Notes: generated by a model from the letters alone, not told the origin. A stretch of DNA of 64,000 nucleotides from Carcharhinus amblyrhynchos (GCA_965287045.1 OZ336880.1:6572001-6636000); one strand, 5' to 3'; numbered from the stretch's first letter, positions 7,419 to 55,007 are shown. Translations and numbers: made by a program.

Positions 7419-7424
7419 TGATTT

Positions 7425-23140: not shown

Positions 23141-23141
23141 G

Positions 23142-24290: not shown

Positions 24291-24329
24291 TCTAATCCTA
24301 GCCAACCACCTCTGAAGTGCAAACATAGA

Positions 24330-24998: not shown

Positions 24999-25078
24999 TT
25001 GCAGTTTCTTTGTTTCCTCTGCTACCGCTGTGGCCTTCAAAAGAGCAGCATCTTCTTGCAATGCCTTCCTCAGATCCT
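24999..25078 (-). CDS. PCNT: PCNT exon (80 bp, 1-0): (E)DLRKALQEDAALLK...KKLQ
   Basis: Acceptor ttttgtttccag, donor CAA|gtatga; phases bridge both neighbours. Confidence 0.85.
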
Positions 25079-30014: not shown

Positions 30015-30191
30015 CTGCATTTGAAGCCGAATTTGATATATCTCTGCTTCATGTGCTGATTCCATCTGTGTCTGGATATCATTAAACAGATCCTGCTGTT
30101 CCTGTGTCAATTCTACTCGCTGTTGCTCTACTTCCTCTTTATGTTTCGTAATCAGTGTACATATCTCTCTATCGTGCTCCCTTTCATGAAC
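30015..30191 (-). CDS. PCNT: PCNT exon (177 bp, 0-0): VHEREHDREI...IRLQMQ
   Basis: Acceptor ctcacttacag, donor CAG|gttaga. Confidence 0.9.
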
Positions 30192-30284
30192 CTGTAAGTG
30201 AGGTTGACAAATGTCCATAAATAATAAAAACTCTTCCAATGTGATATTCTGCTGCAAAAAATATTTGTAGATGCAGTCGAGCTT

Positions 30285-30470
30285 TCCCAGTGTCCAGGCC
30301 AACATTTGTTAACCCCCATGAGAACAAATTAAATTGGGTCATTCATCTCATTACTGTTGGTTGAACATCAGTCTGTATCAATTGCCTACCATATTTACCC
30401 ACAAAGCAAAAATGATCATACTTCAAATGTAATTAACTGGTTGTCACAGTCGTGGAATATACTGAGGACA
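30285..30470 (+). mobile_element. Decayed Deu-domain SINE fragment
   Basis: ccagtgtccaggccaacattt...ggtcattcatctcattactgtt...acttcaaatgtaatt. Confidence 0.55.
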
Positions 30471-30498
30471 AAATGTTCTGCATCCAATTGCTAGATCT

Positions 30499-30673
30499 TT
30501 GGTAGTGACTTTTAAGGGGGCGCCTTGACAAATACATGAATAGGATGGGAATAGAGGGACATGGTCCTTGGAAGAGTAGGGGCTTTTAGTTAAGTTGGGT
30601 TGCATGGTCAGTGCAGGCTTGGGGGGCCAAAGGGCCTGTTCCTGTGCTGTAATTTTCTTTGTTTGTTCTTTGT
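30499..30673 (+). mobile_element. Short young CR1 3' end with apparent 7-bp target-site duplication
   Basis: gggccaaagggcctgttcctgtgctgtaa plus (ttctttg)n tail; tagatct at 30492-30498 and 30674-30680. Confidence 0.75.
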
Positions 30674-31419
30674 TAGATCTCAGCTCTATATAGAACGAAT
30701 ATTGTTGTGCATCTTTCTTTGAATACAAAGTAATCAATTTCAACTATCTTCAGTGGCGCTTGAGAGCTGTTGCCCTTAAGCCACATTTCAAAGCCAATTG
30801 AGCAATTGAATATTATCCTCAATGGCCTTCAAATCCTCTATGCTGCTAAAGGATAAATGCTTTCCCTTATGCATATATTTTTATTTGCCCTCATTGTTGA
30901 GCTATGGTTTCAAGCAACAACATAACAGAGTAAGATTTCCCTCAATTGAGAAAGTACCCTGTGGTATTCACAAGTAATGAAGTATATTCACCATAAAGTC
31001 TTCTTCTGAATTACATAATAAAATTACATCAGAACTGCTGTACTGGGTGGAGGCGGCAACATGTGCATTTTAAATAGGTTTCAAATATTCATATTTATCT
31101 TTCGAATTGGACAGTCAGGATTTTTCAATTTACTTGGAGCGTAAAGTGGCTACACTTCCATTTTGCTCTTTTGGTTATTTTTAGTTTCCATAGCAATGAT
31201 TTAACAATTGGAGTTCCTTCTTATGGCCTGCTGAGTTTTCAATTATGCAATAAGTCCTCTCCAAGAACACCACGGAAGAGTATGGATTAGAACATTTTTT
31301 CTATCTCACAGTGGATCTCTATCTTGCATCAATAGACCGATGTTCATGCAAAATGATCAAGGAGGCTCACTCCCAATTAAGTTTTTCCAAACTTTCAACT
31401 TAATTTTTAAAGGCTTAAG

Positions 31420-31620
31420 TAAAAGTAAAATGCTGCAGATGCTGGAATCTGAAGCAAAAACAGAGAATGTTGTAAAACTCAGCAGATCTGGCAGCATCTG
31501 TAGGAAGAGAAAACAGAATTAACACTTCAAGTTTGTATGACTTTTTCAGAGCTGAAGAAAGGGTGAAGTGTGTTGGAATTTCATACTATATAAGAGGGGC
31601 TGGAACAGTGTTAATCAATA
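31420..31620 (-). mobile_element. Penelope-like terminal repeat remnant, second family
   Basis: gctgcagatgctggaatctgaagcaaaaacagagaatg...actcagcagatctggcagcatctg; related copies at about 1010-1105, 7170-7260, 8035-8130 and 56200-56290. Confidence 0.6.
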
Positions 31621-32014
31621 ATTAGTGGGAGTTAGGAGAGATTGCAACAATTATGTAGCAAAGCTTAAGAAAAAGCGATAGATGGCAGGGGAGGGGAAGG
31701 TTTGCATTGGAATAAAAGACGTTTGTGATATATATAAAAAATGTTCAGATAGAGGAGAAGTCTTAAACACTTAGCTTCAGCATCTAACACTGTAAATGTT
31801 AACATTTTTGAATGTTGATCAAAGTGAGATGGTGCTAGTTAGAAGAAAGCTCCGCTTAAATATAGTTGCTCAGCTTCCTTTTTTGACCATAAAATAACTT
31901 GAGAGTCCACATCAAAACTATAAAATAAGAAAAGTTAAATTGGATACGCTTTCGATGTCTGAGGCTATGATGTATTAATATCACCAATCATGAGCTGACT
32001 GCAAGAGTACTTGC

Positions 32015-32107
32015 CCGTTTAATTAATCCAATTTGTTTTCTCCTTTCATCATCCTGTTTCTGTTGCAAGTCAAACGCTTTCTTCATTTCTACATTCAACT
32101 CATCTAA
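32015..32107 (-). CDS. PCNT: PCNT exon (93 bp, 0-0): LDELNVEMKK...IGLIKR, with GC donor
   Basis: Acceptor ttcttttcag; in-frame donor CGG|gcaagt. Confidence 0.8.
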
Positions 32108-32654
32108 CTGAAAAGAACGCAAATTCACAGTACAACAATTAGGCATGTGTCTAAAGAAAATCATTTTGAATTAGTCAATCAACATTTTAATTATTTCCAC
32201 ACTTCCCTTAATTCCAAAATATTTCTGTTTCCAATATCTTGAAAAGATAAATGTCTGTATTACAACCTTGAGGATTCAATATTAGTACCACCAAAGGTAC
32301 AGTGGAAGAAAGTCATATCTGACACTTCCACTAAATGTCAAGAAAGTGAGGAAATGCATAAAAGACCCGTTTTCATGAGAAAATGACAGGACTTTTCTCT
32401 GGATCCTTAGTCTCTAGAACAAAACAAAGACACTGTCCATGAAACAGAATAATTAGTAGGGAAACATTAAGAAGTCTTCAAGATCCTAGCCTTTCAAATT
32501 CAGTTGATCAAAGATCACCTTAGAAAGTCTGTTTCAGATCAGGATGCAGGTTTATGCGTGGTAGCATAGCAGTTAAATTTCTGAACTAATAACCCAGACA
32601 TCCAAGTACGTGAGATTACCTCCCGCCACAGTGTCTGAGGAATTTGAATCCAGT

Positions 32655-33790
32655 CCCATAAGAATATAAGAGTTGCAGATGGCCATTTGGGCCTGGAAGC
32701 CTCCTCTGCCATTCAACAAGATTGTGGCTGATCTACCACAACCCTACCTTCCCATTGTTCCTTTGTACCCAAAAAATTATCAACCTATGTCTTGAACATA
32801 CTCAATGCTTCCACAACTCTGCAGCATAGGGAATTCAAAAGACTTACTACCCTCAAGTGAAGAAATTTCTCATCTTGGTCCTAAATCATCGACCCGTTTA
32901 TTCCGAGGCTTAGGATCCGATGTTTTTGATTCCTCACTCAGCAGTCAACTTATCAAGACCCTTCAGAATTTTATATTTCAATTACATCACATCTGATTCT
33001 TCTAAACTGCAGGCAATATGTGCTTGGAATACTCAATCTCCCTTCACAGGACAATCTTGTCATCTAAGGAACTAGTCTAGTGAACCTTCACTGTACACTC
33101 CCCCTTGGAAAATTATGTCCTTCCTTAAGTAATGAAACCAAAGTGCCACACTGCTGCCTCACCAATGCCCCATGTAAGTATAGCAAGATTTCTTTACTTA
33201 CATAGAGAATCCATTTATAATAAAAGTTAACATATAATTTGCTTTTCTAATTGTTTGCTGTCCCTGCATGTTAAGAGTCCAATTTCTGTACAGTGACCCA
33301 CTTGGCTCTTTGCATATCTACATTCCCCCCTCCCTCACCATTCAAAAACAAATTTTTATATATTTTTTCCCTACCACAATCGATGAGTGAACAATTCACA
33401 TTGTATTCCATTTGCAACTTCTTGCCTCCCCAATTGATTTGCATTCTTATTGCAGCCTCTACATACTCCTCACCACTTACTTCCCCACCTACTTCTTGTA
33501 TCGGCAGCAAATTTAGATACATTACACATAGTTTCTTAATTTAAATCATTGATAAAGGTTGTCAAAAACATAGGGCCAAGTACTGAGGCCCAACCACTAA
33601 TTACAGCATGTCAACCTGAAAATATCCCATTTATTCCTATTCTGTTTTGCCTATTAACCAATTCTCTATGTTAATATATTAACCTCAATCTCAATTCTAA
33701 TTTTGTCTAATAATCTCTCACGTGGTATCTTATTAAATACTTCTAGAAAATTCAAATACACTACACCCACTTCCTCTACCATATTCAGCT
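32655..33790 (-). mobile_element. Decayed CR1 inserted in a tRNA-SINE (head about 32560-32655, body about 33810-34010)
   Basis: cataagaatataagag tail; RT remnants in ORF 33271..33522 (LQMEYNV). Confidence 0.75.
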
Positions 33791-34759
33791 TACAAGTAAC
33801 ATTCTGATTTGCCAGTTCAATGTTAATTAAATAAATCTGAATAAAAAGCTAGTGTAATTAATGAAGGCAATGAAATTACTGTATTGTTGTAAACACCCAT
33901 CTAGTTCATTAATAATATCCTTTAGGACAGGAAATCTGCCACTTTTATCTACATGTGACTCCAACAATGTGTTTGACTAACAGCCTCTGAAATAACCTAG
34001 CAAGCCAATTGTATCAAACTGATATGTAAAAGTCTAATAATAAAACCAACCTGATTTCCTGGCGTTCTTCCAGTCCTATAAACATAGAAGCATGGCAAAT
34101 AGAAACACAGGTAGGCCATTCAGCCCCTCGTGCCTGTTCCACCATTCATTTTGAACATGGTTGATCAACAAGTTCTGTATCCTGATTTCGCCTCTCCCCA
34201 CCCCTAGGGGAGAAGCACTTGACAACAAAAATCACCATCAATCCAGATAATCCCACAAAGTTCTCCTTACTCAAAACTGGACCTCTGCCAAAACTGAGAA
34301 GGTTGGCTCACACACAAATCAAGCCATACTCTGACAGTCATACTCAAAATCTTACCACCCAGGCCCTGCCATCACCCTTCCAAAATGTGGACTAATCTAT
34401 TAGAGTTGGTGTGTTAGTATTAGTTGGGAGGGTGAGTTTTTGGAAGCTCTCAAAATTGATTTTGGTGCTATAAAGTCTCAGGGCATTAGATCAAACATGG
34501 GCAAGGAAAGCCTCCTTCTGATAACCATTTACCATCTTTCTTCAGATGATGAATCAGTATTCTTCCATATTAATTATTTGCAAGCTCTGAGGGTAGCAAG
34601 GGACAGAATGCATGTTTGGCAGGGAACGCCACTGTCCATTACCAAGATTTACTCAACAGATCTAATGGGCAATTCCTGAAGGGACACAGCTGGGACTGGC
34701 TGCTGGCAAAATCCAAAATGAGGAAAAGACCTGGCAAATGGTTACTAGGCCATTTCAGA

Positions 34760-35035
34760 TGGCAGTTAAAAGTCAATCAATTCAATATGGGTTCAGAGTC
34801 ACAAAAGGTCAGACCAGCTTAAGTTGGCAAATTTACTTTCTAGAAGAGTGAAACAGATGGATTTTTACAAAAATCTGTTAATTTCATGATCAGCATTACT
34901 GATGCTGGCTTTTCAATTCCAGATTAATTAATTTAAATTTTCAGCTGCCATGGCGAGATTTGAACTTATGCCTTCAGATCATTTGTCTGGCCTGTGGATG
35001 ACTGATTCAGCAACATTACAACACAACAATGCCAC
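34760..35035 (-). mobile_element. tRNA-derived SINE (1145 family)
   Basis: ggcagttaaaagtcaatc...gctgccatggcgagatttgaac. Confidence 0.65.
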
Positions 35036-35188
35036 CAGATCAGTGCTTCGGTGATATCAGTGTTGGTTTGTACAACAAAGGACTTGGATCAAAATGAGAT
35101 CCTGAATGGGTGATACATCAGTAGACATAGTGGCACATTTCTTGTGGTTGGAGCCAGTACTTAAAAAAATTGGCTTGAACCATAGGAA

Positions 35189-35473
35189 GGCTGCACAGTG
35201 GCAGAGTGCTGTCTCATAGCACCAGGGACCTGGGTTTGATTCCCAGCTTGGGTCAGTGTGTGTAGAGTTTGCACATTCTCCCAGTGTCCGCATACATTTC
35301 CTCCCATACTCCAAAGATGTGCGGATTAGGTGGATTGGCCATGCTAAATTGCCCCTTAATGGGAGATAAATAGCTAGAGTAAATGCACGGGAATATGGCC
35401 TAGGTGGGATTGTGGTTGGTGCAGCTTCAATGGGCCGAATGGTTTCCTGCTCTACTGTTAGATTCTATGATTC
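35189..35473 (+). mobile_element. HE1-like V-SINE
   Basis: tRNA head cagggacctgggtttgattccc; V-domain gagtttgcacattctccc...ttggccatgctaaattgcccctt; CR1-like tail gattctatgattc. Confidence 0.88.
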
Positions 35474-36070
35474 CAGATCTAGCACATGAACTTGATACTA
35501 GCCAGAATTGTATGGTATCCATTCAAAGCCACTCTTAAATGGTTTCCAGTGGTGCGCTGGTGAAGTGTGTGAATGCTAAAACTTGGTTCTAGGATCAGAG
35601 CTTCTGAGAAGCAGAGTGCTTCTGAGAATTTGCTGCATATTTCAGAATAGAATTCCCAGAATTGGTGGTGAGGTCAAAATTGGTCTCAGGCTCCAAATTC
35701 AGGCAAAAGCCCAATATGTTCAAGGGAAACAAATAATGGTGATTGATGCAGCACTTCCTGGCTTACAGGTCGCAAATTTAACAAAGTGCAAGCAATATTA
35801 GGGTCACATTGAAGAAACTTGGAGCAACAAAAGGAAAAAAACAGGATTAATATAGTCCCAACAACCAACATTCTCCTGTTGAATGGGAGCACAGAATTAA
35901 GTGCATTGTATATTTTGCACATTGAGCATAATTTATATTATACCATCCTACTGCCTATGTTATGCACTATCCTTCCTCATTAGATGTAAAGATCAAACTC
36001 ATGAGAAATTATCAAAATTCGTTTAAGGTCATCAAATACTTGTCATATGTTAGAGCAAAATCTCAAATAC

Positions 36071-38260
36071 CTCCTTCTGATGCTGCATTTTCAAGTTCAT
36101 CACATCAGAACGCCACAATTCTTCCACTTTGCGCTGTTCTTCTTCATAATGGCTGGTCACTTCTATCCGAGCTTGTTGCACAGCACAGCAAAGCTTCTCT
36201 TCCTGTTGCTGAAGGATAGCTTGAACTTTCTCATTGTGACTTTGTTCTAGTTGCTGTTGAGCCTCTCTTAGGTTGCTGACCTCCAGCTTCAGAGCAGAAT
36301 GTTCCTGAAGGTGTTGAGCCTTTTGCTCTTCCATGACTGTCTCTAGTTTCTGCAGTTCAGACTCCTTTCTCTTCAACTCACTGCCCAAAACTAAAATCTC
36401 AGATTGCTTTGTACATTCTAGATCTTGCAGTCTGTTCTTCAAATCTGTATGGTCTTTCCTCAAGCAATTATTTTCAGCTTTGATTTTATCAAGTACTTCT
36501 TCAATCCCAGAAAGATCCTGAGCATTTGACAATAGTTTACTTTCAAGCTCAATCTTCCCTTCAGTTAGTTGATTCACACATTCTTCACTTTCTCTCAACA
36601 GTGACTTAAGTTCTTCAAGTTCTTTGCGCAGAGATGAATCCTGCATGGTTTTCTGCCCAAGGACTTCAGACATCGTTTGATTTTTAGCTTTCTGGGCCTC
36701 AAGCTGATCCTGCAGCTGATCCCGTTGGCTCTGCAGTGCAGCAAGCTGACGACCAAATAAGGCTTGAACTTCACTGGTGACTGAATCTGCGGCCAGCTTT
36801 TGTTCTTGAACACCTTTGACTAACTGTTCTTGTTCTCGCAGTTGTGTCAGCAACAACTGCTTCTCCTCCTTTAAATCCTGCACCATCCCCTTTAACATAT
36901 CTATGTCAATTTCTTTGTCTTTTCTCACTTCTTCCTTTGCAATAACCAGAGTAGAAATCATGCTAATTTGTTCGGGTTGAGTTTCCAGGGAATTTCTTTT
37001 GCTCTCAAGAATCAATCCCTTGATTTTCTCTTCACAATGTAACCGCTCAGTACTTTCTTCTTCCAATTGTAAATGCAGGCTTGATAGCTCCTCTGTGTTG
37101 GCTTTCCACTTCTGGACAGCTTCCTGTGTTTGGCTGGCTGAATTCTTTGCTTCCACGTGCAACTTCAACTCTAACTCTCTTTGCTGCAGCTGCTTTGTTA
37201 GCTCTGCGCACCGCTCACTCAAAATGATCTTTTCTTGATCCATTGCTTCCAAGTTCTCATTGATATCATTTTGATGCACTTCACCAAGCAAGTTTCTTTT
37301 CAGACTTTCCAATTCCTTTCGAAGTACTTCAGTTTTTAGATTGTGCTGTATTTCAAGGTCTTCCTTAAGTTTGGACAATTCTGTTTCATGACTGAACATC
37401 ATTTTGGTTTTAAGTTGTTCAAGCTCTACTTCCTGAGATTCAGCAAGTCGACCAAGCACTTCATCCTTCTCCCTCTCCATCATCTCCAATTTGATACTGT
37501 AGTTTGTGATTTCATGCTCATGCCGGAGTCTCATTTCCTTACTGACTTCCTTCTCTTGGGCTAAGGATGCATTGAGCTCCTGAATTTCATGATTTAAATG
37601 TTCTTTTTCAGATTTGTATAGCTTTATTTGTTCTTCCAGATCTTGAACCAAATGTCTATATTTCTCCTGTTCCTGCTGAGACACTGTCATCTTTTCTACT
37701 TTTTGGTGAAGTTTCTCTTGCTCAAGTCTGGACTCTTGCAGCTTCTTATTGAGATCCATGTTCACTGCATTTAAAACTTGCACTTGTTCACAAGAATGGT
37801 TTTGACCCTGATTTTGCAAACAGTCAACTGCAACATTTAAATTAATTTCCTTTGTTTGCTCACCCAGCTGCTGCATTGTTTGGACAGGCCCCTGACTGTG
37901 ACTTGCCCCTAGATCAACCCCCAGCTGTTCCACATACAATGGAGTATCCTTTTGACTAAATTGTTCCTGCACGTCCTCTGCACCATCCTTTTGTTCTTCA
38001 ATTTCTTCTAGAGCCTGCTGATCCCTTTGTTCTATGGTGCATTCAATGTTACCATTTAATTCAGCAATTTCTTGGCTCCTGAGAGACAGCGAGTGCTGTA
38101 GCTGTGCCATGGTAGTGCTTTTATGGTCTAATAGTTCTTTTAATTCTTTAATGGTTTCATCCTTTTCTTCTATCCACTGATTTAATTGTAGCATGGTATT
38201 TTCCGTAATCTTCTGTTGTTCAACTATCTGAGTAAGACAGCTTTCCTTATCTTTTGCATT
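36071..38260 (-). CDS. PCNT: PCNT giant exon (2190 bp, 730 aa, 0-0): NAKDKESC...MQHQKE
   Basis: ORF 36050..38266; acceptor at T-tract ...ttttgaag, donor GAG|gtattt; E/Q/K/L-rich heptads. Confidence 0.92.
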
Positions 38261-38519
38261 CTTCAAAAAAAAAGAAAAATTCTTGGAGAACTATGTAGAT
38301 TGAAAATTGAAAACGCAATGTGTCTAATTTGTGCGCATTTTATAAACATATCCTGTGAACGCTGCTTTGCAAAATCCAACTCTGCTGTTCAAAAAAGGGA
38401 GCAAGAAAAATGGGAAGCTACAGGTGATTTAGCTTGGTATCAGGGAAAGTGCCAGAATCTCATATTGGGAAGTCTCAACAATTCACTTTAAAAAAATCAT
38501 AGTCTCATCAGACAGACAC

Positions 38520-39735
38520 AACATAGTTTTATGAAATAAAAATCATTTTTGACAAATGAGGATATAATCAGTAAGGTAGTGTAGATAAACAGGAACCAAT
38601 AAATGTAATATACGTAGATTTCCAAAAGTCATTCAATGAAGTGCCAAGGAAAAGGGTTCATAGGGTTGGATGTAATATATTGGCATGGAAAGAGCATTGG
38701 TTAACAGACATGAAGCAGAGAACTAGGAATAAACAGGGCATTTTCACATAAGTAAATTTGCAAACTTAAATCATATTAATGAATTAGACAAAACAGAGGG
38801 TAACATATTGAAGTTTGCTAATGATACAAAGCTCAATGGGAAACTAAGCTGTGAGGTTGACAGAAAGAGATCTAACCAGGTTAACTGAGTGGACAACAAA
38901 GATGGCAGAAGAAGAAGAATATGAGGACCTTTGAGAGCAAGAAAAGCAGAATATTTTTAAAAGATATGAAACATCTAAATGTTGACGTTCAGAATATCTC
39001 GTACAAGGGCACACAGAGATTTAGCATGCTGGTACAGCAAGCAATTAGGAAAGCAAATGGCAAGTATATCTATATGCAAGAGGATTTGAGAACAAAAACA
39101 AGGAAGTCTTGCTACAATTGTACAGAACTTTGGTGAAAACACAACTAGAATACGGTTCAGTTGTGGTTCCCATAACTTAAGGGAGGATATATTTGCATTG
39201 TAGGCAGCACAGCCATGGCTCACATGATTGGGGTTAGAGCGTTCAAATGATGCTGAATAATTGGGCCTATACACACTGGAATTTAAAAGATCGAAAGATG
39301 ATCTCACAAAAACGTACAATATTCTGAAAGGGCTTGCACAATAAGAAGTCGCAGGTTAAAATCCAACAGGTTTATTTGGCAGCACAAGCTTTTGGAATCT
39401 CACTCCTTCTTCAGATGAGTGAGGAGTTGTGTTCACAAACAGAGCATACATTGACACATACTGAAAAGGCTTCACACATTAGATGCTGAGAGGTTGTACT
39501 GCCTGGCTTGGGAACTCCAGAACACAGGGCCACAGTCTCAGGATACTGCTAATTCAGCACTGAAAATAATAGGGAAAAATCTTTTCACTCAAGGGGGTTG
39601 CAAATCTTTGGAATTCTCTACTCCAGACAATTGCAGATGCTCTATTGTTGAATATATGATGGACAGATTTCCCAGGGAATCAGGAGTGGGCTGCAAAATA
39701 GATTCAAGGCCGATAATCATCATGGTTGTACTGAA
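38520..39735 (+). mobile_element. Decayed CR1 ORF2/3' UTR with a Penelope pLTR insertion at about 39335-39460, followed by an antisense CR1 piece at about 39740-39885
   Basis: gatttccaaaagtcattcaat, aagtttgctaatgatacaaag RT motifs; ORF 39589..39852 RTLEGVQKRLTRLFPGMKGLPYEDRL. Confidence 0.75.
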
Positions 39736-40182
39736 CCAGATTAACCTGTCCTCATAAGGCAACCCCTTCATACCAGGAAACAACCTAGTCAACCTTTTCT
39801 GAACTCCTTCCAAAGTTCGCATATCCCTCCTAAAGTAGATCCAAAACTCCATACATTAATCTAAGTGTGGTCTCATCAATGTTTGCAAATAGTTTTTGAA
39901 CCTTCATATTCTTTTTTTATTACATGAAACATTTTATAACATGAAAACCACGCTGCACATTGTACTCCTAATGTCTGACCAAAGTTCTAGCCGAGTTTGC
40001 TTCTAGCAGTGGACCGCAATCCTTCATTTGCTTTTATTAAAAAAAGGATATCTTGTTGCATTTCCTGGAAAAGTTCCCGATATCTAAACTATGTAAATAA
40101 GGCATGCTTGGAGATAGAAAAATGTAGAAACACAGGATATTCAGAGAATTAATCACTGCAACAAATTCAGCCATTTGCTCAC

Positions 40183-40347
40183 TTGTTCGGAATATTCTAG
40201 TTGGGCTTCTAGATCACGCGCTCGTTGTTCAAGTGTCTCCACGTGTTCACTCTGGTCTTTCAGGTTCTGCTGGAACAGAGAGATTTGTTGCTGGGCCTGA
40301 AGGAGTTCCATAAATCCAGGACTTTTGTTTTTCAGAATGTCACTTGC
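40183..40347 (-). CDS. PCNT: PCNT exon (165 bp, 0-0): ASDILKNKSPGFMELLQAQQQI...EYSEQ
   Basis: Acceptor gacttacag, donor CAA|gtgagc; absent from ORF track; resembles AKAP9 ASETLRN...DLLQAKQQI. Confidence 0.88.
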
Positions 40348-40784
40348 CTGTAAGTCAATATTACATTTGAAAATTAATCATGAAAACATTTCTTCAACAG
40401 AAATTACTAAAGGCAGACTTATCAATTAATTCATTTCCATAATTGTATAACAGCCAGGTGGTAAAGTTAATCAAGCTTTACAATGCGCTCACAAAAGCCT
40501 CATTCATCTAAATGTTTTCTGCTCCTGCAAATAGAGAAGGGGGACCAATCCAAAAGTCTGAAACATTAGATTTTTGGTATGCTAATGCCATTAGTTCGAT
40601 TGGTAACACCAAAATACACCAAGTCCAGTGACAGAAACCACAGGAGTTTTTAAATTGGATCTTCCAAATTGCTTTCAATTTCTAGAGCTCTATTTACTAA
40701 ATTCAGTATACTGTAACCAGACACAAGATGGAGCAGTTATTTTGAACACACTTTTACCTGTAACCAGTTCATACCATGTTATTT

Positions 40785-40960
40785 TTCTTGGGACATAGAC
40801 GTCACTGGCTGGCCTGTATTTATTGCCAATCCCTAGTTGCACTTGGAGGGCAGTTGACAGTCAACCACATTGCTGTGACTCTGCAGTCACAATAGGCCTG
40901 ACCAGGTAAGGATGGCAATTTTCCTTCCTTGAGGGACATTAGTGAACCAGTTAGGTTTTG
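40785..40960 (-). mobile_element. tRNA-SINE (1145 family) 3' half
   Basis: tttattgccaatccctagttgc...gggacattagtgaaccag. Confidence 0.7.
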
Positions 40961-41619
40961 ATGTGTTGATCTTGGGCTGTCCCAATACATTATGATGTGT
41001 TGGTCCCAAGCCATAAATAGACCAAATCAGTGTCTAGTTATTCCTCAAACTCTTTTATAAAAGAGAGTGATTGTAATTATCTGAGATTCCCCTACATAAA
41101 AATCCATCAGTCTCAGCCTTGAAAATCTCAAATGACCGAGAGTTGTAGATCCCATTGTTCTGATTTTCATTTCTAACTAGCCTACCTTTAACTTTGTGTT
41201 TGTGCTCCCTTATTTGCCCACCAGAAAAGACAGGTTCACCGCATCTGTCCCATCAATTCCTTTTATGGTGTTAAAATCTCAATAAGATCACAATTTGCCT
41301 TTCAAAGCTCAAGGGATACAAGTTTATGTAACCTGCTCTGAGAATATTAACACTAGTCTCATTTTGGTGCTTGTGCATTATACTCCTCCAAAAGTAAATA
41401 TTTTTCCTGAGTGGTGGTGTGCTCAAAATGGAATACATTACTCCAGGTGGGATATGACCAAGGCTCTGTACAACTCAGCTGTAATTTCTTCATTTTTGTA
41501 TTCTAACCCTCTTGGAGATAAAGTTCCACTTTCTATTAGCCTTTGTCAGCCACTTTTTGTTCACCAGCTTTCAGTAATGTGCTTTTGCACAGCTTCCAAT
41601 ATTTAAAAAAACAGCACTA

Positions 41620-44200: not shown

Positions 44201-44399
44201 TGTTATCAAATAAAACATTCCAATTTGTTGCTGTTTCCAATTTCTCAATACGGTCTGTGTCATCACCCAAAAACACATGTGTTTTACATATATACTAATG
44301 CCATCTAGATGTACCATCTCTTTCTATGGTCAAAAATTTCCTTTAATTAAGAAAACCAAACTTTTGCCCTCCCAGGTCTATGAAGTTGAAACAAATTGC

Positions 44400-45130
44400 T
44401 CACAACTTTGGCATCTTAGTTGACCCCAAGCTTTACCTCCAATAGCATTCCCTCCCCATCAACAAGACTGCCTACTGCAACTCCTGAAATAACTACCCAT
44501 CTCCACCCTGCCTCAGCCCTCATCCATGCATGTTATTTTCAAACTATTCCAGTGCTCTCCCGGCCAGTCTCCACCTTCTACATTGCATAAATTTCAGCTC
44601 ACACAAAGCTCCACTGCACCAAGTTCTGTTCATACATCACCCGTATTTACTGGGGTCTTGAGTTTCTGAGCCAGCAATGTAAAATTATCATCCAGGTGAT
44701 CAAATTTGTTCATCGTTTATGTACTTTCCTCCATCTCTACAAACTTTTGAGAATTCTTCCATTCTTCAATTCGGGCCTCTTTAGATCTATGATCAACAAT
44801 CAGCATTTCATGCAGTAAAGCATCCCAAGATGCTTCATAGGAGTGATTATCAGACAGCATTTGGCACCAATCTGCTAGGACAGCACATCAGAAACTTAGC
44901 TAAATAGGTAGGTTTCCTTTACCCCTTCACTGCCTGTTGTTATGAACTGGTTGGACTTTAACCTGGTGTTGTGAGACATCTTGCTGTGTTTCCTTAGCTA
45001 TCAGGACCTGAAATTTTGGAATTTCCTTCCTAAATCTGTATGCTGCTTAAAACATCATTTAAAACCTAACAATAGCCTTTGAGCACCACCTCAGGAAACT
45101 TTTACTACGCACAGAAATATCTTGCTGATG
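44400..45130 (+). mobile_element. Decayed L2-type fragments
   Basis: ctattccagtgctctcccggccagtctcc...aagttctgttcatacatcaccc is the complement of the 27385 family. Confidence 0.55.
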
Positions 45131-45650
45131 GCAATGCAAATCAATATTACACCAAATAATCCACATGCAATCATCAATGCAGCATCAAAACTTAAAAATA
45201 AATCCTTTTAGATTGTTACATTGATATAAGTACCATGCAGGTTTCCTATGAGACAGATGTTAGTTTGATTGCTTCATAAGAGAAATATATATCATGACAT
45301 GAACATGTAAACAATGACGAACTACGTTAAAATTTAGTACACAAAATCGATCCTAAATCTCAAGAATCACTGATGTGAACAAGCAAAATATTCACAACGA
45401 AGTAGAACTGTTCTTCTAAAGTTTCAACAGAACAAAATGAATTTTACAATACATTCAAATAATGAAGGATCAAATAGAGAAACGTTTGATGCTAATCTTG
45501 GACATCCAAAGCAGAACACTGTCCTGCTCCTTAGTAAATGATAACAGTAAAAAGTTCTGCATTAGTAGCAAAGACAAGCAGCAGTCAACTTCATATATTA
45601 ATTGCAAGTAAAAAGTGTTGGAATTAAGTGGAATATCTCTTAAGTAATAC

Positions 45651-45800
45651 CTGTTGCAACTGATGCTGTAAAGACTGAATCTGATCAGTTAACTCCAAAG
45701 CCTCCTGTTGGACCTCATCTCTGTTCCGAATAACCTGCTGCAGGTTATCAGTCAGCTGGCTAATAATATCATTCCTCTTCTGTATGGCCATCTCTAACTC
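45651..45800 (-). CDS. PCNT: PCNT exon (150 bp, 0-0): ELEMAIQKRNDIISQLTDNLQQ...HQLQQ
   Basis: Acceptor gtctcatcag, donor CAG|gtatta; resembles AKAP9 EFEAAIKQRDGIITQLTANLQQ. Confidence 0.9.
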
Positions 45801-46159
45801 CTGATGAGACCAGAGCAAAGTGAAAATGCTTACTTCAAGTTTATTAGAAATATGTCAATTTTACTCAGTTAAATTTTTTAATTTGAGGATGTCAAATAAT
45901 GACTGCCACAGAATGTTTTAATCCTTGCACAAGAGCCCCCACCACCCTCATCTCTATAACCCCTCCAGCTCTCTAACTTTCCAAGAACCTAGCATCCCAT
46001 CAGCACTGCCCTCCTGTAACTTCTCAAGCCTCATCACTGAAAAGATATATCTTCAGCTTTCTAGGTATAAAAGCTCTGGAATTCCCTGACCTGGTATTTC
46101 TCTCCACCTTTAAAACTCTCAACACTAAGTTTATTGTCACCCTTCAAGCAACTAGTATT

Positions 46160-46465
46160 CATACTGTGCTTTCAACATCATAAAATGTCCTAAGGAATTT
46201 CACAAGAGCATTATAAAGCATAATCAGACACAGAATCACAGAAGTATTAGGGTAGATGGCCAAACTTTGGTCAAAAATGTCGATTTTAAGGACCAACTTA
46301 AAAGAGAGGTAGAGGCAGAGAGGTACTGGACTAGAAGCTCCAGGTTCAAGCTCAACGTCAGGACTCGTTGGCTCAATGGGCTGATAATCAGTTCAGAAAT
46401 CCTCCACCAATTCCCCCACTATTTCCTAAAGGTTAAAAACCAGCATGGGTACGAAGATATACAAG

Positions 46466-46498
<33 letters not shown>

Positions 46499-47290
46499 TT
46501 GAGCTGAAGGCATAACCACCAATGATGGAATGATTGAAATTGAAGATGAATATCAGGCTAGAATTATATGAATGCAGATATCTGAGAACTGGGAGCTGGA
46601 GAAGATTGGGGGAAAATCAGGAGGGGCAAGGCAGTGGAGGGATTCAAAAAAGGATGAGAAATTAAATAAAATCAAGGTGTTGCCTAACCGGGAGCCAGTG
46701 TAGATCAGTCAGGTGTGATAGAGAACAGAAACTGGTGCAAGGTAAGGACCAGGTAGCAAAGTTTTTCGGAGACCAGTTAGCAGTGCATTAAATAGTCAAA
46801 ATTGGAGGTAATAAGAGCAAGAATACATATTCAACAACAGATGAGCCAGGACCGGACAAAGCCTGGTTATGTTACAAAGATAAAAGTAGGCATATATGCA
46901 CTCACAAGCTCAGCGTCAAATAAGACACAATGCAGCAAATACACAAGTTTAACCTCAGGCTGTTACCTGGGAAAGGGATGGAGTTATGTTTAAGGAGTAG
47001 GGATCAAAAACAATGGCTTCATTATTGCCAATACTAAATTGGAAGAAATTTTTGATCACCTGGTTCTGAATATTAATCAAGCAATCCGATAATTTAGCAA
47101 TGCTGGAAAAATTGCAAGGGACAATGCAGAGGAAGAGCGAAATGCCATAAACATACATGCAAAAGCTAAGAGTGCTTTCACATGATGTCACTAAGACAGC
47201 ATGTAGATGAGAATGAGGTTCCATGGACAGATCCATAGGGAATACCAGAGGCAATGGTGTGGCAGCAGGAAGAGAAGCAATTGAAATGAT
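46160..47290 (-). mobile_element. L2-type LINE fragment
   Basis: ccaaactttggtcaaaaatgtcgattttaagg; gggagccagtgtagatcag. Confidence 0.65.
46472..46498 (+). repeat. (AG)n microsatellite
   Basis: Read directly. Confidence 0.9.
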
Positions 47291-47819
47291 AGGCAGGCTA
47301 CAATTAGATGTCCTAGGCTCAACCATCTTCACCTGTTTGACCGATGACCTTCCCTCCATCATAAAATCATATTAGCACAGTACAGTACTCATACCTAGCT
47401 AACTGAAAACTGAATATTTTCATAAACTGCCATGCACCAATTTAAATTGTTAAATGATTAAGGTAATTTATTGGGACAATTTCCCTTGGTGCTGAACACC
47501 AAACCTTTTATCACTGCACAGGTTGATCTTTTCCCATGTGAGCTACCCTTGACACCATCCATCCCAGCTTAGCCCATCTACCTGGTTCAATCCTACCTGA
47601 ACTGTCTGACCCACTAGAACTACTAATCAGCCACAGACTCTAACAAAGTGGATAAGCCTCAACAGTGCTACACTGCAGAGGCAATATTCAAACATTTTCA
47701 CTTGATTTCATGCATCACTTAATAATTGAATTAAGGTTCCATTCTTTTGCCAGAAATGAGCAAGATCTGAAATTTGGCACAGGTTCATGCCCAAGATTAC
47801 CATTTGAGACACTGTACCT

Positions 47820-48680
47820 ATGTTCTATACCATTCACAACTCCTCACATACTGAAGCAGTCCATGTCTGTAAGCAGCAAGACTTGGACAACATTCAAGTT
47901 TGGGCTGCTAAATGACGAATAACATTCAAGTCACACATATTTCAGGCAATGACTATCTTCAACAATAGAGAACATAACCACCCTTGGCATTCACAATATT
48001 ACCCTTGCTGATTCCCAACATCAATAACTTGGAATTTACCTTTGAACAGAAACTGAACTGGATCAATGATACAAATACTGTGGCTTCAAGAGGCACAGCA
48101 GCAAGTAATCTCACCTTCAACTCTCCAAATCCTGTCCATTATCTACAAGGCACAAGTCAGGGGAAGCATGATGGGTCACTTTCCAATTGCCTGGATGATT
48201 TCAGTTTCAACAAACTCAAGAAGGTCAACATAATTCCAGATAAAAGCAGCCTATTAATTAGCACTGCATCTATTAGCTTAAACTTCACTCCTTCACCACC
48301 GAAGCACGATGGCAGCAGTATGTACCATCTACAAGATGCACTGTGGCAATTTACCAAGACTCCTCCAACAGTGCCTTCCAAACCCATCACTTCTTTCACA
48401 TAGAAGGAGAAGGGCAGCAGATGTACAGCAACACCACCACCTGCAAGTTCCCTTCCAAGCCACATACCATGCTGACTTGGAACTATATTTGGCCCGCTGT
48501 TCTTTCACTGTCATTGGACCAAGTTCCATTAACTCTCTTCACTAACAGCAATGTAGGTGTACCTACACCACATGGACTGCAGAGGTTTAAGTCAGTTCAC
48601 TGTCACCTTCTGATGGGAAATTAAGAGTGGGCAACAAATGCTTTGGCAACCATGCTTGCATCCCATGAAAGAACAAAGAG
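47820..48680 (+). mobile_element. 3' part of second LINE family
   Basis: AAVCTIYKMHCGNLPRLLQQCLPNP, nearly the same as ORF 58993..59202; tail gggcaacaaatgc...catcccatgaaagaa. Confidence 0.8.
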
Positions 48681-49285
48681 AATGGACCCCGAGTAACGCA
48701 GTTCCAACCACCTAGGCAATAGTGCAGAGGCGTGAGGGGAAGATAATGAGGTCAACCAAGCCAAAAGTGGCAGACTAATTGAGAAAGACGAGGAGATTGT
48801 TTCTCTCTTTTTGAGAGAGGTAAAACAGAGCATCTTTTCTGATTTCCATGAGCCATTTCAGTATTGTGGCAGGAATGGAAACATGATCGAAGATATCTAA
48901 ATATGGAATTCTGAGAAAGATAAGCACCGAATTGGGAAGCAACATCACATTCAAGTAGAGGAAAAGGAAACAGGTTGATAGGATGGTCAACAGTTGTCTT
49001 ATCTGAAGAAAGGGATGATGATGGCAGATTTAAACAAAGGAGGTACAGCACTTGAATAGTGAATAATATTGGTTAACATGGGGACCAGGAAGGAAAGTGG
49101 GCTGGTCAGCAGTTTAAAGCACAAGGTGGGTCTTTTACACAATGAGGTGAGAGGGCATGACAGGAGATAGGCGATAACCTAGAGTAACTTGTGGGTTCTG
49201 GGCTCCAGCAAGAAGAAACTTCACTCTGGTAGGTTAGTGGAAGGGAGGAAGGCAGCAGAGGGAACTAGTTGATCTTCGTGACATA

Positions 49286-49898
49286 GGGCCCGATTTTACA
49301 ATCGCATTCTGCCCATTTTCGGGTGCAAAAACTTGGTAAAGTTGGGCATGAGGCGAGTAGCGCAATCCGCACCCACCTCTGCACCGGTTCCCCCCTTACC
49401 AAGACCCGAAAAAGGCCATGATCAGGATCACGCCCAGAACAGTATGCAGTTGCAAGTCGCTGAAAAGGAAATACAAGATTCTTCAAAAATAATTTTGACA
49501 CCACAGAGTTAGAGTTTTGGACAGATTTTCAAACTTGAGGATTGGGGGGAAAATCTAACTGAAACTTACAGAATACTGAGAGGTCCAGATAGAGTGGATG
49601 TGGAGAGGATGTTTCCACTAGTGGGAGAGACTAGAACTCGAGGGCACAACCTCAGAATGAAGGGACCCTCCTTTAAAAGGGCATGACGGCCATATTTAAA
49701 TTGCCTTAGTGGGCTGCACTCCCAACTTTACAGGCACCTCCCCCCTTTACCATCATGTACGCTCATCTGGAATCGGTGCGAAACAGACATGCTCTATACA
49801 AGTCCAATTCAGGTGTTCCATCAGTGAGGGTTAGATCTGAAACACTCCCAGTTTCAAGTCCGCCCAGCACTTAGAATCAAAATGATAAAATATGGCCC
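49286..49898. mobile_element. Non-autonomous DNA transposon (PIF/Harbinger-like MITE) carrying a copied 239-bp insert
   Basis: Imperfect TIRs gggcccgattttac / gataaaatatggccc; CpG-rich relative to its flanks. Confidence 0.65.
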
Positions 49899-51244
49899 AC
49901 AGAGTCCAAGAGCCCCTTGCAACTATTGCTGCTTCTCAACATCCTATTCTTTGACTGAGGTCAATTTTTGCTTGGACTCTGCATGTTGAAATTGATCCAA
50001 CACGATTTCAGGCAATTACCAGTAAGCAACCAAAAGTAAAAGGCAAGGATAACCATGTTGGTTACCCAGAATCTTGCCCTCAGAAATTAGTGTACATTAT
50101 GTCTGTTTTATACCAAATAACATGCAAAGCACATACCAATTTCTATCCTGGTGTATCCAAATCAATTTTGCTGGATTAACACACATCATGTACCAAGATA
50201 TTGAATCAGCTCCATCAGGAGCTCAGGTTTGACGCCCTTGATCTACAGGTCAGATACAAGTGGTCATGTAACCTATTGCTGGCTAATGGAATTTAGCCCA
50301 ATGTAATTAGACAGGTTTTGCCTCCTGTTATGATTACAAGTTAGAATAATTACAAATAGGCTAATCCACTCAAGTTCAAATCTATAACAGTTTGAAAGCA
50401 TCAGTGCTTCAACTCAATTTATTGACTCTCAAGCCTTCCTACAAACTCACTTCAGAACCTTTCGATGGAGCGAGGAAGAAAAGTTTGCATATGTTACACG
50501 GGTATATGTGCCCAAACAAAAAAGGTAGACCTCATAGAAGGTACAGAAAAGATTTACTGTAATGGTACAAGGACTCCAGTTATGTGGAGAGACAACAGAA
50601 GGTGGCATTGGTCTCCTGCCAGAGAGAAAGTTAAGAAGATATGTAATAGAGGCGTTTAAAATTTCAAAGTACTGTGATGACAGTAACATGAAACATTTTC
50701 CACTGCTAGGAGAGTCAGTACCAGAGAAAACATAGTACATATATAAACATCAGTGAATTATGAGGATCTGAAATACTTGCTTGAAAGTGTGATAGAAGCA
50801 TGACCAATGGCTATTTTTGAAGTGGAAAGAAAAAGATTTGTGTTACAACACTGGGCAAAGGGTTAATTGGATAGCTCTTTCCAAGAAGCAAGATAGCTAA
50901 ATTGCCATCTTGTGCTCTGTGATTTTGGCCAGGTTATTATTTTGCCATGGATACAAAACAAAAATGTCAAACAATAACTAAAAATTCTGCACATAACTGA
51001 AATCTTGTTTGAAGTCTTGGGTAGAACACTGAAATATACATTTCTTATATATTTCTCTAGGTACAATTTGCTATAAAGCCTTATGAATCGTCAATATTAT
51101 AGAAATTCTAGTATGCAGTTGCAAGTCACTCAAAAGGAAATACAAGATTCTTCAAAAATAATTTTGACACTAGGATTAGAGTTTTGGACAGATTTTCACC
51201 ATTGAGTTGAAAAGGATTGGGGTTTGGGGGGTGGGGGAGGGGGG

Positions 51245-51622
51245 TGGGAATCTAACTGAAACTTACAGAATACAGAGGCCTAGATAGACTGGATGTGGAA
51301 AGGATGTTTCCACTAGTGGGAGAGACTAGAACTCGAGGGCACAACCTCAGAGTGAAGGGACCCTCTTTTAAAAGTGAGACGAGGAGGAATTTCTTCAGCC
51401 AGAGAGTGGTGAATCTGTGGAACTCATTGCCACAGAGGGCTGTGGAGACCAGGTCATTGAGTGTCTTTGAGACAGAGGTATAGGATCTTGATCAATAAGG
51501 GGATCAAGGGTTACAGGAGAAGACAGGAGAATGGGGATGAGTCTCATATCAGCCACGATTGAATTGCAGAGTAGACTCAATGGGCTGACTGGCCTAATTC
51601 TGCTCCTATATCTCATGGTTCT
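51245..51622 (+). mobile_element. 5'-truncated CR1 3' end, relatively young
   Basis: ORF 51295..51483 ERMFPLVGETRTRGHNLRVKG...FFSQRVVNLWNSLP. Confidence 0.9.
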
Positions 51623-51659
51623 AACTCCAAAGGACCATATTTTTGGATTAATATTTTAG

Positions 51660-51963
51660 TGTCAGAGGGACTGATGCAAAAGGGACATCCTTTTCCAGTA
51701 GATATGTTAACTTGCCCTCTCAGGTGGGCATAAAAGATCATGTGACACATAATTCAGCCGGAGAAAAGTTTGACTGGTATCAATATCCCTTAAGCAACAA
51801 CACTAAAATAGACTGCCTGGTCATTATCACATCACTGTGAACCTTACTGTGCACAAATTGGCTGGGGCGCTTTCAACATTGCAATAAGGCTAAGCTCCAA
51901 AAAGGGGCCATAATGGAGTGTCACAGGAGTTGTGAAAGACACTTTATGAATGCAAGTATTTCT
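51660..51963 (+). mobile_element. Deu-domain SINE fragment
   Basis: tgccctctcaggtgggcataaaagatc...ctggtcattatcacat...ctgtgcacaaattggctg. Confidence 0.75.
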
Positions 51964-53184
51964 TAAATATTATGAAAGTGATGTAACAATTAACAATGCT
52001 TAGTGTGTACGGTATTTCTTCAACCACTGGTCCAATGTTGAACTGTGTTTGGGTAAAACTTTCAAGCCCATGAAGTTAATGGTCTTGATGCCAAACTATG
52101 GTATACCTACAGGCTCATAGAACAGAAGTGAAATATAATACTGGAAGATATAGACACTTGCAATAGAACTCAGCAAGAATAGCAATTTTATTGAAAACTG
52201 CCAATCTCCAGTTTAACAGAAGTAGGCTATCAACCAATGTGCAGTTGGCAATTTTGGTCATTTAAATGTAGGTTATCTGTTTCAAAATTAGTCAAATTTA
52301 ACCTGGGCCTGCCTGGTATCCTGAATCTCAGATAAAGGGAGGCAGGGATTGCTGGATCCTGGAGCTAGTGCCTTTTCATTTACCTATGGATATCAACTGA
52401 CTTCCCTCATGCATCACTGCACCCACTTCATTGATCCTTCCAATCCCTGCTCCCCAAAGTCTCCAACTTCGCCCACCAGTGACCATCCTTAATCTCTTCT
52501 GGTGCTCTGCCCAGCTACATCCTGATGCAGAAGGCCTATTAACCCCACCGACTATTAGGCAGGCTGCACTCAAGAAACAGATAAAAAATGTTAATCAAGT
52601 CCTGCTGTTAAATTCAGCAGGATCCTTTCTACCCTACCTCAAATTAGCCCTCACTGCCTCTAAGTTAATCATCAGCCCCACAGGCCCAAAGCCACCTTTC
52701 TCACCCAAGCATACTACACTGTAGCAATGAGATAGATTTATTTCAAAAAATACTTCGGGTTTAACATAACCAGTTTGAAACATGGTAAAGGCAAAGAGTG
52801 GAGGAAAAATAAAATACTTCAGAAATTCATTGCAAAATACTATACATAATAAGCAAGATCGATCAAAAATTAGGCATGAAAAATACAATTAATGCATCTC
52901 TTCAAGATTCTCTCTTCATCTGACCCCCAATCAAGAAGCCAAACATTCAGTACATGGCAGTTGGAAACAATGAATTTGTATGAGTTATTGTGCTTTAAAA
53001 AAAAAATTATGGGGAAGATTAGATTAAAACACTGGTCATTCTTGGAGACCTAATGATGAAACCAAGTCACTCTCAAGAAAATAAAAATCTCTTTTCTAAA
53101 AAGCCAAAAGTTTACAGAATAACTGGAAAAATTTTAAAATGTCACGCTCCAAGATATTAAAAGTGCACAAGATTAAGTAAAAAG

Positions 53185-54230
53185 GGGATAGCCATTCAGC
53201 CCCAAGACTGTTCGTCTATTCAACGAGAACATTATATACTTCATGATCTAGCTCCATATATACGTCTTTGTTCCACACCCCTCAAACATCTTTGATTTAA
53301 ACAACTATCCAATTCTATTTGAAGTGTAACAATTTACCAATCACCACCTGACATGTACAGGATAGAGTTCCAAACTTCTAATTTCACTCTGAAAGGTCTG
53401 GCTCTATTTTCTAAGGTAATGCCTCATTAGGAAGAACCTCTTTCCTTTGGTTGGTGAGTCGAGAAACATTCCTTCCTCTTAATATCTTGAAAACTTCGAT
53501 CAAATTACCATGGCCAGTATACCCTTTTTTCAGGCGTAGTCGAACAGGAATTTGTATAGCAGGCTTCTATCCTTTTGTTTTCTGGTTCTCGAGATATAAA
53601 GTCAAGCATTCCATTAGTCTTTCTGATTATTTTCTGTACCTGTTTATGGTACTTTAGTGATCTATATACTGGATATCGAAGTTCTTTATACCCCCATTAT
53701 TTCTAACTTTTCAGTATTTACTTGTTCTACAAAAAAGTGGGTGACCTCATATTTGCTTATATTAAGAGGTTTTGCCATAATCTTGTTCATTCATTCACTT
53801 TATCTATCGATATGTCTGCAATCAAGTACCGCTTACAATACTGCCCGTCTTGATGACATTGACAAATTTGGACATGTGGCTTTCTATCCTAAGTCTGTAA
53901 TAAAGACTGAACAGTTAAGATCCCAACATAGATCTTTGCAGGTCACGCTTATTACATTATAGCACTTAGCCATTATCATTATGCTGTTTCCTGCTGCTCA
54001 GCCAATTTCCTAACCAGTTCAATAATTCATCTTTAGTCCATAATTTTTAACTTTTGTTAACAGTCTCTTATGTAGGATATCTGGAAGTCCAAATGAGTAA
54101 CATGCATGGACAATTCCCCTAACCACTACTTTGGCTACATCTTCAAAAAGAAGAATTCATAAGGTATGACCTATCTTTCATGTGGTTGTCTGAAAATTTG
54201 TCTCTCTTTAGTGCTATTAATTTCTCTGTT
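53185..54230 (-). mobile_element. Highly decayed CR1
   Basis: gccattcagccc tail; ctggaagtccaaat antisense RT motif. Confidence 0.55.
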
Positions 54231-54824
54231 ATATTAATAATTGAGATGTGATGAGAGAGATATCACCTGGCACAACAAAACCACACCGAAAAAAATGAAA
54301 CAGACTGGAACCATGGTGTATTAGGGCTCTGTTGCTGCCCTCAAAACCCACTCCTGATCACTATTAAATAGGAAATCTCTATGCATAAATGTCAGGCAAA
54401 GGCAGAATTAGATGCATTGGCCTCCAAGCAGCCTACCAACACTCTAAAGAAGAAGAAATTTTGACTTCAGCAAGGTACTAGAAGGCAACCACTGTTCATA
54501 GAACTATAAATTGCCATGACTCAGCATGTGTAAAATATCAGAGTTTTTTTTAATTAAAAAGTTAATCACCAGACAGGTTCCCTTAGAGCCAAGAATTTAT
54601 TTTGCACCCAGAATTTTCTTCAAGAGCTCAATTTTTGAGCTGTGTAATCAGGTGCCAAATCCAATTGTCAGGATATGCCAAAGTAGAAGATGTGAGACTC
54701 TAAGTTGCATGGCAAGTGATGATTGTATTGTTGAATTGAAACTCATTTCTGTTGCAGGACAGAATTTCAAAAAGCATAAAAATGATTTAATCAGATGTTT
54801 GAATTGAGTATTTTTCGTCCATAC

Positions 54825-55007
54825 TTGTTGCATTTGCTCACTCTCCTGGTAAGTGGTCAGTTGATCCTGGAGATCTTCCACCTGAGCACTGAGATGTTCC
54901 AAAGCCATTTCTTTGCCTTGCAACTGATCTTCAAGCTGGATTATTTTTAACTGGCAGACCTGAAGCTCCGTTTGGGCAAACCCTGTACTGTTATTCACCT
55001 CTTCCGC
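54825..55007 (-). CDS. PCNT: PCNT exon (183 bp, 0-0): AEEVNNSTGF...ESEQMQQ
   Basis: Acceptor tcttttccag, donor CAA|gtatgg; coiled-coil; within ORF 54648..54998. Confidence 0.85.

Follow-up and report, generated by a model that had tools for sequence, protein, structure and literature searches.

How does a gene whose body is that of pericentrin come to begin with a long block that reads like its paralog AKAP9? The question is raised by a stretch of 64,000 nucleotides (nt) from the shark Carcharhinus amblyrhynchos (G000:C11:6572001-6636000, hereafter the window; G+C 39%, in a genome of 2.9 Gb). It is spanned by a single gene on the minus strand, in which 1053 stop-free codons precede an exon marked by the peptide KDHQLEL, exactly the number given in a preliminary description made from the sequence. 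We conclude that this gene is very probably a long-form shark pericentrin (PCNT), exons 3-8 of which were likely inherited from the common ancestor of PCNT and AKAP9, likely deleted later in placental mammals, and would serve as an optional extension of the scaffold's arm more likely than as a Golgi anchor.

In the joined model, which was built by inspection of splice sites, the KDHQLEL exon is exon 10 and begins at residue 1070 once exon 1 is counted. Across exons 1-9, all acceptors are AG and all donors GT except for that of exon 8, where a GC-AG intron with the donor GCAAGT at 32015 is used in spliced contigs of two runs. Exons 2-9 are phase 0 at both ends and multiples of three, i.e. they have the length and phase of cassette exons, and exons 3-8 together add 944 residues. 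The N-terminal block had earlier been delimited as 30015-55007, which captures exons 4-9 and leaves exons 1-3 upstream. In the following list of features, as in the text below, z scores are derived from 40 shuffles each, against the exons of the genome's own AKAP9.

G000:C11:6661837-6661790, minus strand: PCNT exon 1 (48 nt), outside the window, upstream.
61080-60931, minus strand: exon 2 (150 nt, 50 codons), with a basic N-terminal motif common to AKAP9 exon 2 and retained in placental PCNT.
55973-55923, minus strand: exon 3 (51 nt, 17 codons), by position equal to the 45-nt AKAP9 exon; similarity no better than shuffles.
55007-54825, minus strand: exon 4 (183 nt, 61 codons), coiled-coil-like; weak, non-specific match to the 171-nt AKAP9 exon (z 3.0).
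45800-45651, minus strand: exon 5 (150 nt, 50 codons), 52% identical to own AKAP9 and within the GM130-binding fragment of AKAP9.
40347-40183, minus strand: exon 6 (165 nt, 55 codons); its homologue is the AKAP9 exon next in order (z 7.8).
38260-36071, minus strand: exon 7 (2190 nt, 730 codons), with phase 0 on either side and corresponding to the AKAP9 exon of 2625 nt.
37337..37522, minus strand: HEHEITNY motif inside exon 7, 67% identical to own AKAP9.
36602..36898, minus strand: PCNT-specific stretch inside exon 7, conserved across PCNT, not AKAP9.
32107-32015, minus strand: exon 8 (93 nt, 31 codons), with the GC donor, use of which is confirmed by spliced contigs.
30191-30015, minus strand: exon 9 (177 nt, 59 codons), present in degenerate form in 81 of 117 placental N-termini.
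28661-28406, minus strand: exon 10 (the KDHQLEL exon), conserved in every PCNT examined; it shares 36% identity with the exon next after the big one in AKAP9.
1952..25078, minus strand: ten more PCNT exons in the window, with approximate ends; the gene runs about 100 kb past the window to the PACT domain.
G000:C11:6481559-6481786: PACT domain, a PF10495 match above cut-off.

The gene assignment of the preliminary description was right. In a tree of the sequence starting at exon 10 (22 rows; of 5541 columns, 1436 were retained), the gene groups with 12 annotated pericentrins, apart from eight AKAP9 proteins, with a bootstrap of 100; one AKAP9 row and the lamprey row had been cut somewhat too early, which merely added unaligned columns. 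The white shark 'pericentrin' aligns to 48 stretches at this locus with 61-98% identity. The genome has two PACT genes, on contigs C11 and C2, and two copies of the exon 7 motif, located on those same contigs; the C11 PACT domain lies on the strand of our gene and is reached from the window by an unbroken series of exons. As for neighbours, MCM3AP (MCM3AP_GANP, C11:6.666-6.683 Mb) terminates on its 3′ side some 4.6 kb ahead of the start codon of PCNT, a DUF4587 gene, presumably linked to C21orf58, is found 100 kb upstream of PCNT at C11:6.764 Mb, and a DMAP_binding match lies 12 Mb away on the same contig. On C2, KRIT1 exons (NUDIX_5) occupy 102.66-102.68 Mb, 80 kb from the PACT gene of that contig. 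The human 21q22.3 cluster holds MCM3AP, C21orf58 and DIP2A near PCNT, and AKAP9 adjoins KRIT1/CYP51A1. The locus is thus the PCNT ortholog, and AKAP9 is a separate gene on C2. That the downstream exons are clearly PCNT, as had been stated, is borne out by the tree, with the qualification that the KDHQLEL exon has an AKAP9 counterpart as well (z 12.2).

Three smaller observations belong to this locus. In the stretch G000:C11:6661837-6682592, from the PCNT start through MCM3AP, MCM3AP shares the strand of PCNT, as does the DUF4587 gene further out, unlike the human order, in which C21orf58 and PCNT stand head-to-head. The PACT match contains one TGA, probably owing to intron read-through, and an exon border falls in that region of the white shark alignment. 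Finally, the long pericentrin records P0017, P0051, P0105 and P0362 carry AKAP9 or AKAP9-like names, and hagfish P0298 is named a leucine-rich repeat protein; automatic naming is probably led astray by the head they share.

How far does the likeness to AKAP9 extend? On C2, AKAP9 starts with exons of 48, 246, 45, 171, 156, 198 and 2625 nt, all phase 0, followed by an exon matching PCNT exon 10. The diagonal of an exon-by-exon score matrix gave z 10.6, 5.8, 0.7, 3.0, 15.2, 7.8, 15.6 and 12.2 for PCNT exons 1-7 and 10, respectively, and holds for exons 1, 2, 5, 6, 7 and 10 (z 5.8-15.6), with phase 0 introns in both genes. The earlier impression that the extra exons are AKAP9-like is therefore well above chance for exons 5, 6 and 7, and the four shark peptides quoted in its support are all present, their AKAP9 counterparts being found in gibbon AKAP9 (P0005) with one residue different from the quote. 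Identity to the shark's own AKAP9 amounts to 52% in exon 5, 20% in exon 6, 16% at the start of exon 7 and 67% in the HEHEITNY motif, and a QVQVLN-type motif is likewise common to both heads. Exons 8 and 9 had no clear counterpart among the C2 AKAP9 exons, and a small extra AKAP9 exon of gibbon gave no convincing match in the shark locus (best score 26). Conversely, identity in the PCNT-specific stretch of exon 7 is 60-68% for the proteins of non-teleost fish and coelacanth and for the long bird forms, and 8-20% for AKAP9. The closest proteins are from sharks, with catshark P0001 being 82% identical across the largest open frame, exon 7. A Pfam scan of 12 exon frames returned nothing but coiled-coil matches below cut-off, and in four full-length relatives PACT was the sole domain.

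The next question is whether the block is actually spliced to the pericentrin body. None of the runs searched is on record as RNA, and splicing was read from contigs of three of them (X2, X13 and X3); run X1 crosses exon-intron borders and was set aside as splicing evidence. Contig 14 of X2 (13,892 nt, from a relative about 96% identical in exon 7) spans exons 5-10 without gaps, at record positions 633-783, 784-947, 948-3140, 3141-3234, 3235-3410 and 3411-3666, and its length would fit a protein of about 4,340 residues under a rough model. It supplies a transcript that links the AKAP9-like block to exon 10, against the objection, foreseen in the preliminary description, that none might do so. 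X13 (13 differences in exon 7) yielded three contigs, joining exons 5-6, 7-8 and 9-10, with breaks at 40183 and 30191, the pattern to be expected from a branch; no skipping joint was displayed in a joints table dominated by high-copy repeats. X3 contigs join exons 6-7 and 9-10.

Skipping of these exons does occur in annotated isoforms, all of them predicted models. In white shark isoform X8, exon 6 is joined straight to exon 8 and exon 7 is absent, making exon 7 a likely cassette exon. Compared with X1, wallaby isoforms X18 and X19 are missing residues 226-1058 and 176-1058, respectively, and isoform pairs of Tasmanian devil and crocodile differ by similar blocks; in all three species, the borders fall at exon junctions. 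The GC donor of exon 8 closes the block that some isoforms skip. Because all introns through exon 9 are phase 0, leaving these exons out, by skipping or by deletion, does not shift the reading frame. Together with the isoforms, this structure suggests a telescoping N-terminus and a simple path to the placental state.

To date the block, a profile of the two shark paralogs was run against 1.84 billion representatives and retrieved 59 proteins, most of them AKAP9-like by score. The cyclostome members are sea lamprey P0277 and hagfish P0298, both with the exon 5 and HEHEITNY motifs; P0299 and P0301 were judged chance coiled-coil matches and rejected as family members. Since lamprey and hagfish carry the same motifs, the block appears to be ancestral, and, in keeping with its collinearity with the shark's own AKAP9, it likely predates the PCNT/AKAP9 duplication, as had been proposed. 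The sea lamprey PACT protein XP_032816498 (4167 residues), annotated 'AKAP9', has the exon 5/6 and HEHEITNY motifs and PCNT-type stretches further down, and it also retains AKAP9 motifs lost in shark PCNT. In 100-residue windows of the lamprey protein, AKAP9 scores higher at 401-600 and 801-1000, and PCNT at 2001-2100, 2501-2600 and 3301-3400. By sequence it looks like a fuller ancestral combination, which would fit a longer ancestor whose two paralogs lost different pieces.

Is the long head a shark peculiarity? Exon 5 and/or the PCNT-specific part of exon 7 were detected in 111 of 118 non-placental PCNT records (taken from the best 120 of 407 listed proteins, and counting records, not species, with many isoforms); five of the seven with neither part have no normal N-terminus. 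Both parts occur in 48 of 57 ray-finned fish, the single coelacanth, 3 of 41 bird and 7 of 13 marsupial records, and another 36 of the 41 bird records have exon 5 without exon 7. Exon 5 is conserved in fish, bird, reptile and marsupial PCNT, as well as in lamprey and hagfish. Zebrafish NP_001333219 (4245 residues), coelacanth XP_064419566 (4598 residues), sawshark and catshark GCB63285 have the same order of N-terminal segments as the shark gene, and these records place the exon 10 motif at about residue 1015-1200 and PACT at the C-terminus, as the shark gene does; in the curated zebrafish Pcnt, exon 10 comes at residue 1015. The surmise that the block might already be present in non-mammalian annotations was thus accurate, and the long head is the ordinary form of non-placental PCNT. 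A pre-duplication architecture is likely kept, as had been claimed; it is the normal non-placental state, not a peculiarity of this gene.

Placental mammals differ. Their pericentrin/kendrin, as in squirrel monkey P0124, bat P0122 and horse P0199, has exons 1-2 and everything from exon 10 to PACT in common with the shark gene, along with a degenerate exon 9, but is without exons 3-8 in all records examined. The exon 10 motif stands at or before residue 239 in 121 of 121 records (the best 120 of 662 plus one from the listing of 120 above), compared with 1070 in the shark; the preliminary description had given roughly 240 residues for human PCNT. Among the 117 placental N-termini with more than 60 residues before exon 10, the profile of exon 2 matched 114, that of exon 9 matched 81 and those of exons 3-8 matched none (0-2 matches in shuffled controls). 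Within the limits of the sample, exons 3-8 were likely lost on the placental side of the marsupial split, and the short placental PCNT is likely the derived form. The preliminary description had ascribed the loss to mammals as a whole, which is too broad in that marsupials keep the block and too strict in that placentals retain a degenerate exon 9. One oddity among placentals is an N-terminal repeat in squirrel monkey P0124 (residues ~110-195), which ends in a stretch like the end of marsupial exon 8. This primate repeat may be an expanded exon 8 relic; the exon 8 profile gave no detection in P0124.

Several points weigh against this history. Exons 3 and 4 are paired with AKAP9 mainly by position, and the last two thirds of exon 7 outside the motif are only 12-17% identical to it. 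The evidence for skipping consists of predicted annotations and the X13 contig break points, not of a junction read. No invertebrate was identified among the 59 profile matches, the source being known for 12 of them, and the lamprey gene is not firmly assigned to PCNT or AKAP9 orthology. The profiles behind the non-placental counts were built from rows that partly belong to the counted set. The placental sample comprises protein records of bats, horses, rhinos, carnivores, rodents, colugo and primates only, and the sampling includes no afrotherian, xenarthran, monotreme, amphibian or human PCNT.

What might the head do? In human and fly proteins, the C-terminal PACT domain docks at the centriole and the N-terminus points outward. 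Our preferred account is that PCNT and AKAP9 would each have shed different parts of a longer ancestor, with phase 0 exon skipping giving rise to short isoforms first and the placental loss being fixed later. Exons 3-8 would then form an optional extension of the scaffold's coiled-coil arm, pointing outward from a PACT-docked protein as in human and fly, and the HEHEITNY motif may act as a binding or pairing patch that is still under selection in sharks and AKAP9.

The alternative that fares best keeps the same history and lets the head remain AKAP9-like in function, so that the long isoform binds GM130 and provides a second Golgi microtubule-organising anchor switched by exon skipping; we consider it unlikely. 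In human AKAP450, i.e. AKAP9 or CG-NAP, GM130 binding and Golgi targeting map to residues 159-463 (AK1B), p150glued and microtubule binding map to residues 1-1029 (AK1) and not to 159-463, and both fragments dimerise (selected passages of PMC3105543); the GM130, p150glued and microtubule interactions have been demonstrated only in the human protein. The N-terminus of this paralog is collinear with the shark PCNT head, with the same phase and common exon 1/2, exon 5/6, QVQVLN-type and HEHEITNY motifs, and differs in that it has no PCNT-specific exon 7 stretch and in that its AK1B motif is eroded in shark PCNT. In gibbon AKAP9, whose numbering is estimated to run about 8 below the human one, exon 5 begins at 187, a motif that lamprey also has covers 376-444, the QVQVLN-type motif lies at 480 and HEHEITNY at 581; two of the four PCNT/AKAP9 matches quoted earlier fall outside the GM130 fragment.

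In favour of a Golgi anchor, exon 5 lies inside AK1B and is 30-54% identical to AKAP9 in shark, fish, bird, reptile and marsupial PCNT, and shark exons 5-6 match lamprey at 41 of 85 residues, compared with 33-43 of 85 for AKAP9. Fly Plp has moreover been implicated in the activity of Golgi outposts as microtubule-organising centres, such that this Golgi trait may be ancestral (going by the accessible part of bioRxiv 866574). The 376-444 motif, however, which in 11 AKAP9 proteins shares 30-39 of 72 residues with lamprey at scores of 158-209, reaches no more than 70 in shark PCNT, where it aligns at another place, i.e. it is eroded; the AK1B counterpart retains its first third (exons 5-6), and its distal conserved motif is the eroded one. 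The first third of exon 7 is down to 16% identity, and in the passages of PMC3105543 the GM130 contact is resolved no further than AK1B. In human RPE-1 cells, PCNT is normally off Golgi membranes, and AKAP450 brings it there only upon centriole loss (bioRxiv 153304, in part).

The Golgi/GM130 anchoring suggested in the preliminary description thus has the conserved exon 5 on its side, but with the best-kept motif falling beyond the GM130 fragment and the inner one eroded, it is weakly supported at best, and anchoring of this kind by the shark head seems doubtful. A division of non-placental PCNT by splicing into an AKAP9-headed long form able to use AKAP9's Golgi or dynactin partners and short, centrosome-only forms, of which placentals fixed the shortest, with the clean split of PCNT at the centrosome and AKAP9 at the Golgi arising as a placental novelty more than 300 million years after the duplication, can be put forward only tentatively. 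The head more likely lengthens the centrosome scaffold than anchors it to the Golgi. HEHEITNY most plausibly would serve the dynactin/microtubule-binding or dimerising activity that AKAP450 1-1029 has outside 159-463.

The HEHEITNY motif raises a question of its own, as it is the one part in which sharks stand out. Over 66 residues, its identity to AKAP9 stands at 67-71% in three sharks, at 42% in the PCNT of coelacanth and at 12-35% in that of ray-finned fish, birds and marsupials; it is eroded in bony-vertebrate PCNT, and coelacanth and birds in turn retain more of a neighbouring motif that is eroded in sharks. Such a pattern would arise if, in the cartilaginous-fish lineage, the motif had been taken over from AKAP9 by gene conversion or exon capture, and a tree constrained to place shark PCNT with shark AKAP9 narrowly escaped rejection at 0.05 by the approximately unbiased (AU) test (p-AU 0.054). 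The best tree nevertheless holds all eight PCNT rows together (support 96/93; three misaligned rows, i.e. the white shark short isoform, seriema and possum, were excluded). Shark PCNT is no nearer to shark AKAP9 than to gibbon AKAP9 (67% each), and the identical codons (24 of 43, with 18.4 expected from codon usage) amount to a non-significant excess (z 1.8). Recent conversion is unsupported by the tree, the AU test and codon identity alike, and any older event appears improbable. Because the lamprey motif is nearly intact (40 of 70 residues identical between shark PCNT and lamprey), retention under selection would be the simpler reading. No partner of the motif is described in the literature consulted, and a sequence search of the PDB with the exon 7 profile returned, as its sole solved-structure relative, one weak coiled-coil match, JIP3 (E 0.007).

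Could the long N-termini instead be independent, clade-specific insertions into a short ancestral PCNT? In an alignment of 169 orthologs, conservation of the PCNT N-terminus is said to be poor, and signs of clade-specific insertions are noted (bioRxiv 2020.05.08.084749, as far as its text was accessible), and much of exon 7 is indeed highly divergent between clades. Yet the same motif order recurs in sharks, ray-finned fish, coelacanth, birds, marsupials, AKAP9 and lamprey, and a single loss on the placental stem is far simpler, leaving separate insertions very improbable. That the gene is AKAP9 itself, or that a chimera or faulty assembly has joined the 5′ end of AKAP9 to the 3′ end of PCNT, is refuted, despite the AKAP9 names of the four records with its architecture, by the complete and separate AKAP9 N-terminus on C2 and the motif copies on two contigs, the spliced contigs that connect both blocks, the same layout in catshark, sawshark, coelacanth, gar and zebrafish, the exon 5-6 and HEHEITNY trees that set the gene apart from AKAP9, the exon 10-onward tree and the MCM3AP neighbour.

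Long pericentrin sequences are already annotated publicly; what is added here is the evolutionary polarity, the exon modularity and one well-kept motif. A literature search that reached few subscription journals returned no paper on homology between the PCNT N-terminus and AKAP9 or on the loss of this part in placentals. [quoted passage not shown] Lamprey, shark, bony fish, bird, marsupial and placental proteins would then form a natural series with which to map the AKAP9 N-terminal residues for Golgi/dynactin binding, and the 66-residue motif, conserved from lamprey to primates, is flagged for partner finding.

Some features of the surrounding DNA complete the picture. Very high-copy repeats lie in the introns at 34801-35391, 30073-30663, 38938-39528, 40711-41301 and 44848-45438, with a summed contig depth of up to 58,000, and the frames 174-473, 51256-51480 and 62451-63471 resemble, by eye, what we take to be fragments of CR1-type long interspersed nuclear elements. 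In AKAP9, the 5′ part of exon 2 and its acceptor exist as a partial tandem copy of 200 nt, 83.5% identical and about 620 nt upstream of the real exon:

G000:C2:102952017-102952216 and 102951393-102951589: the two members of this tandem pair at AKAP9 exon 2.

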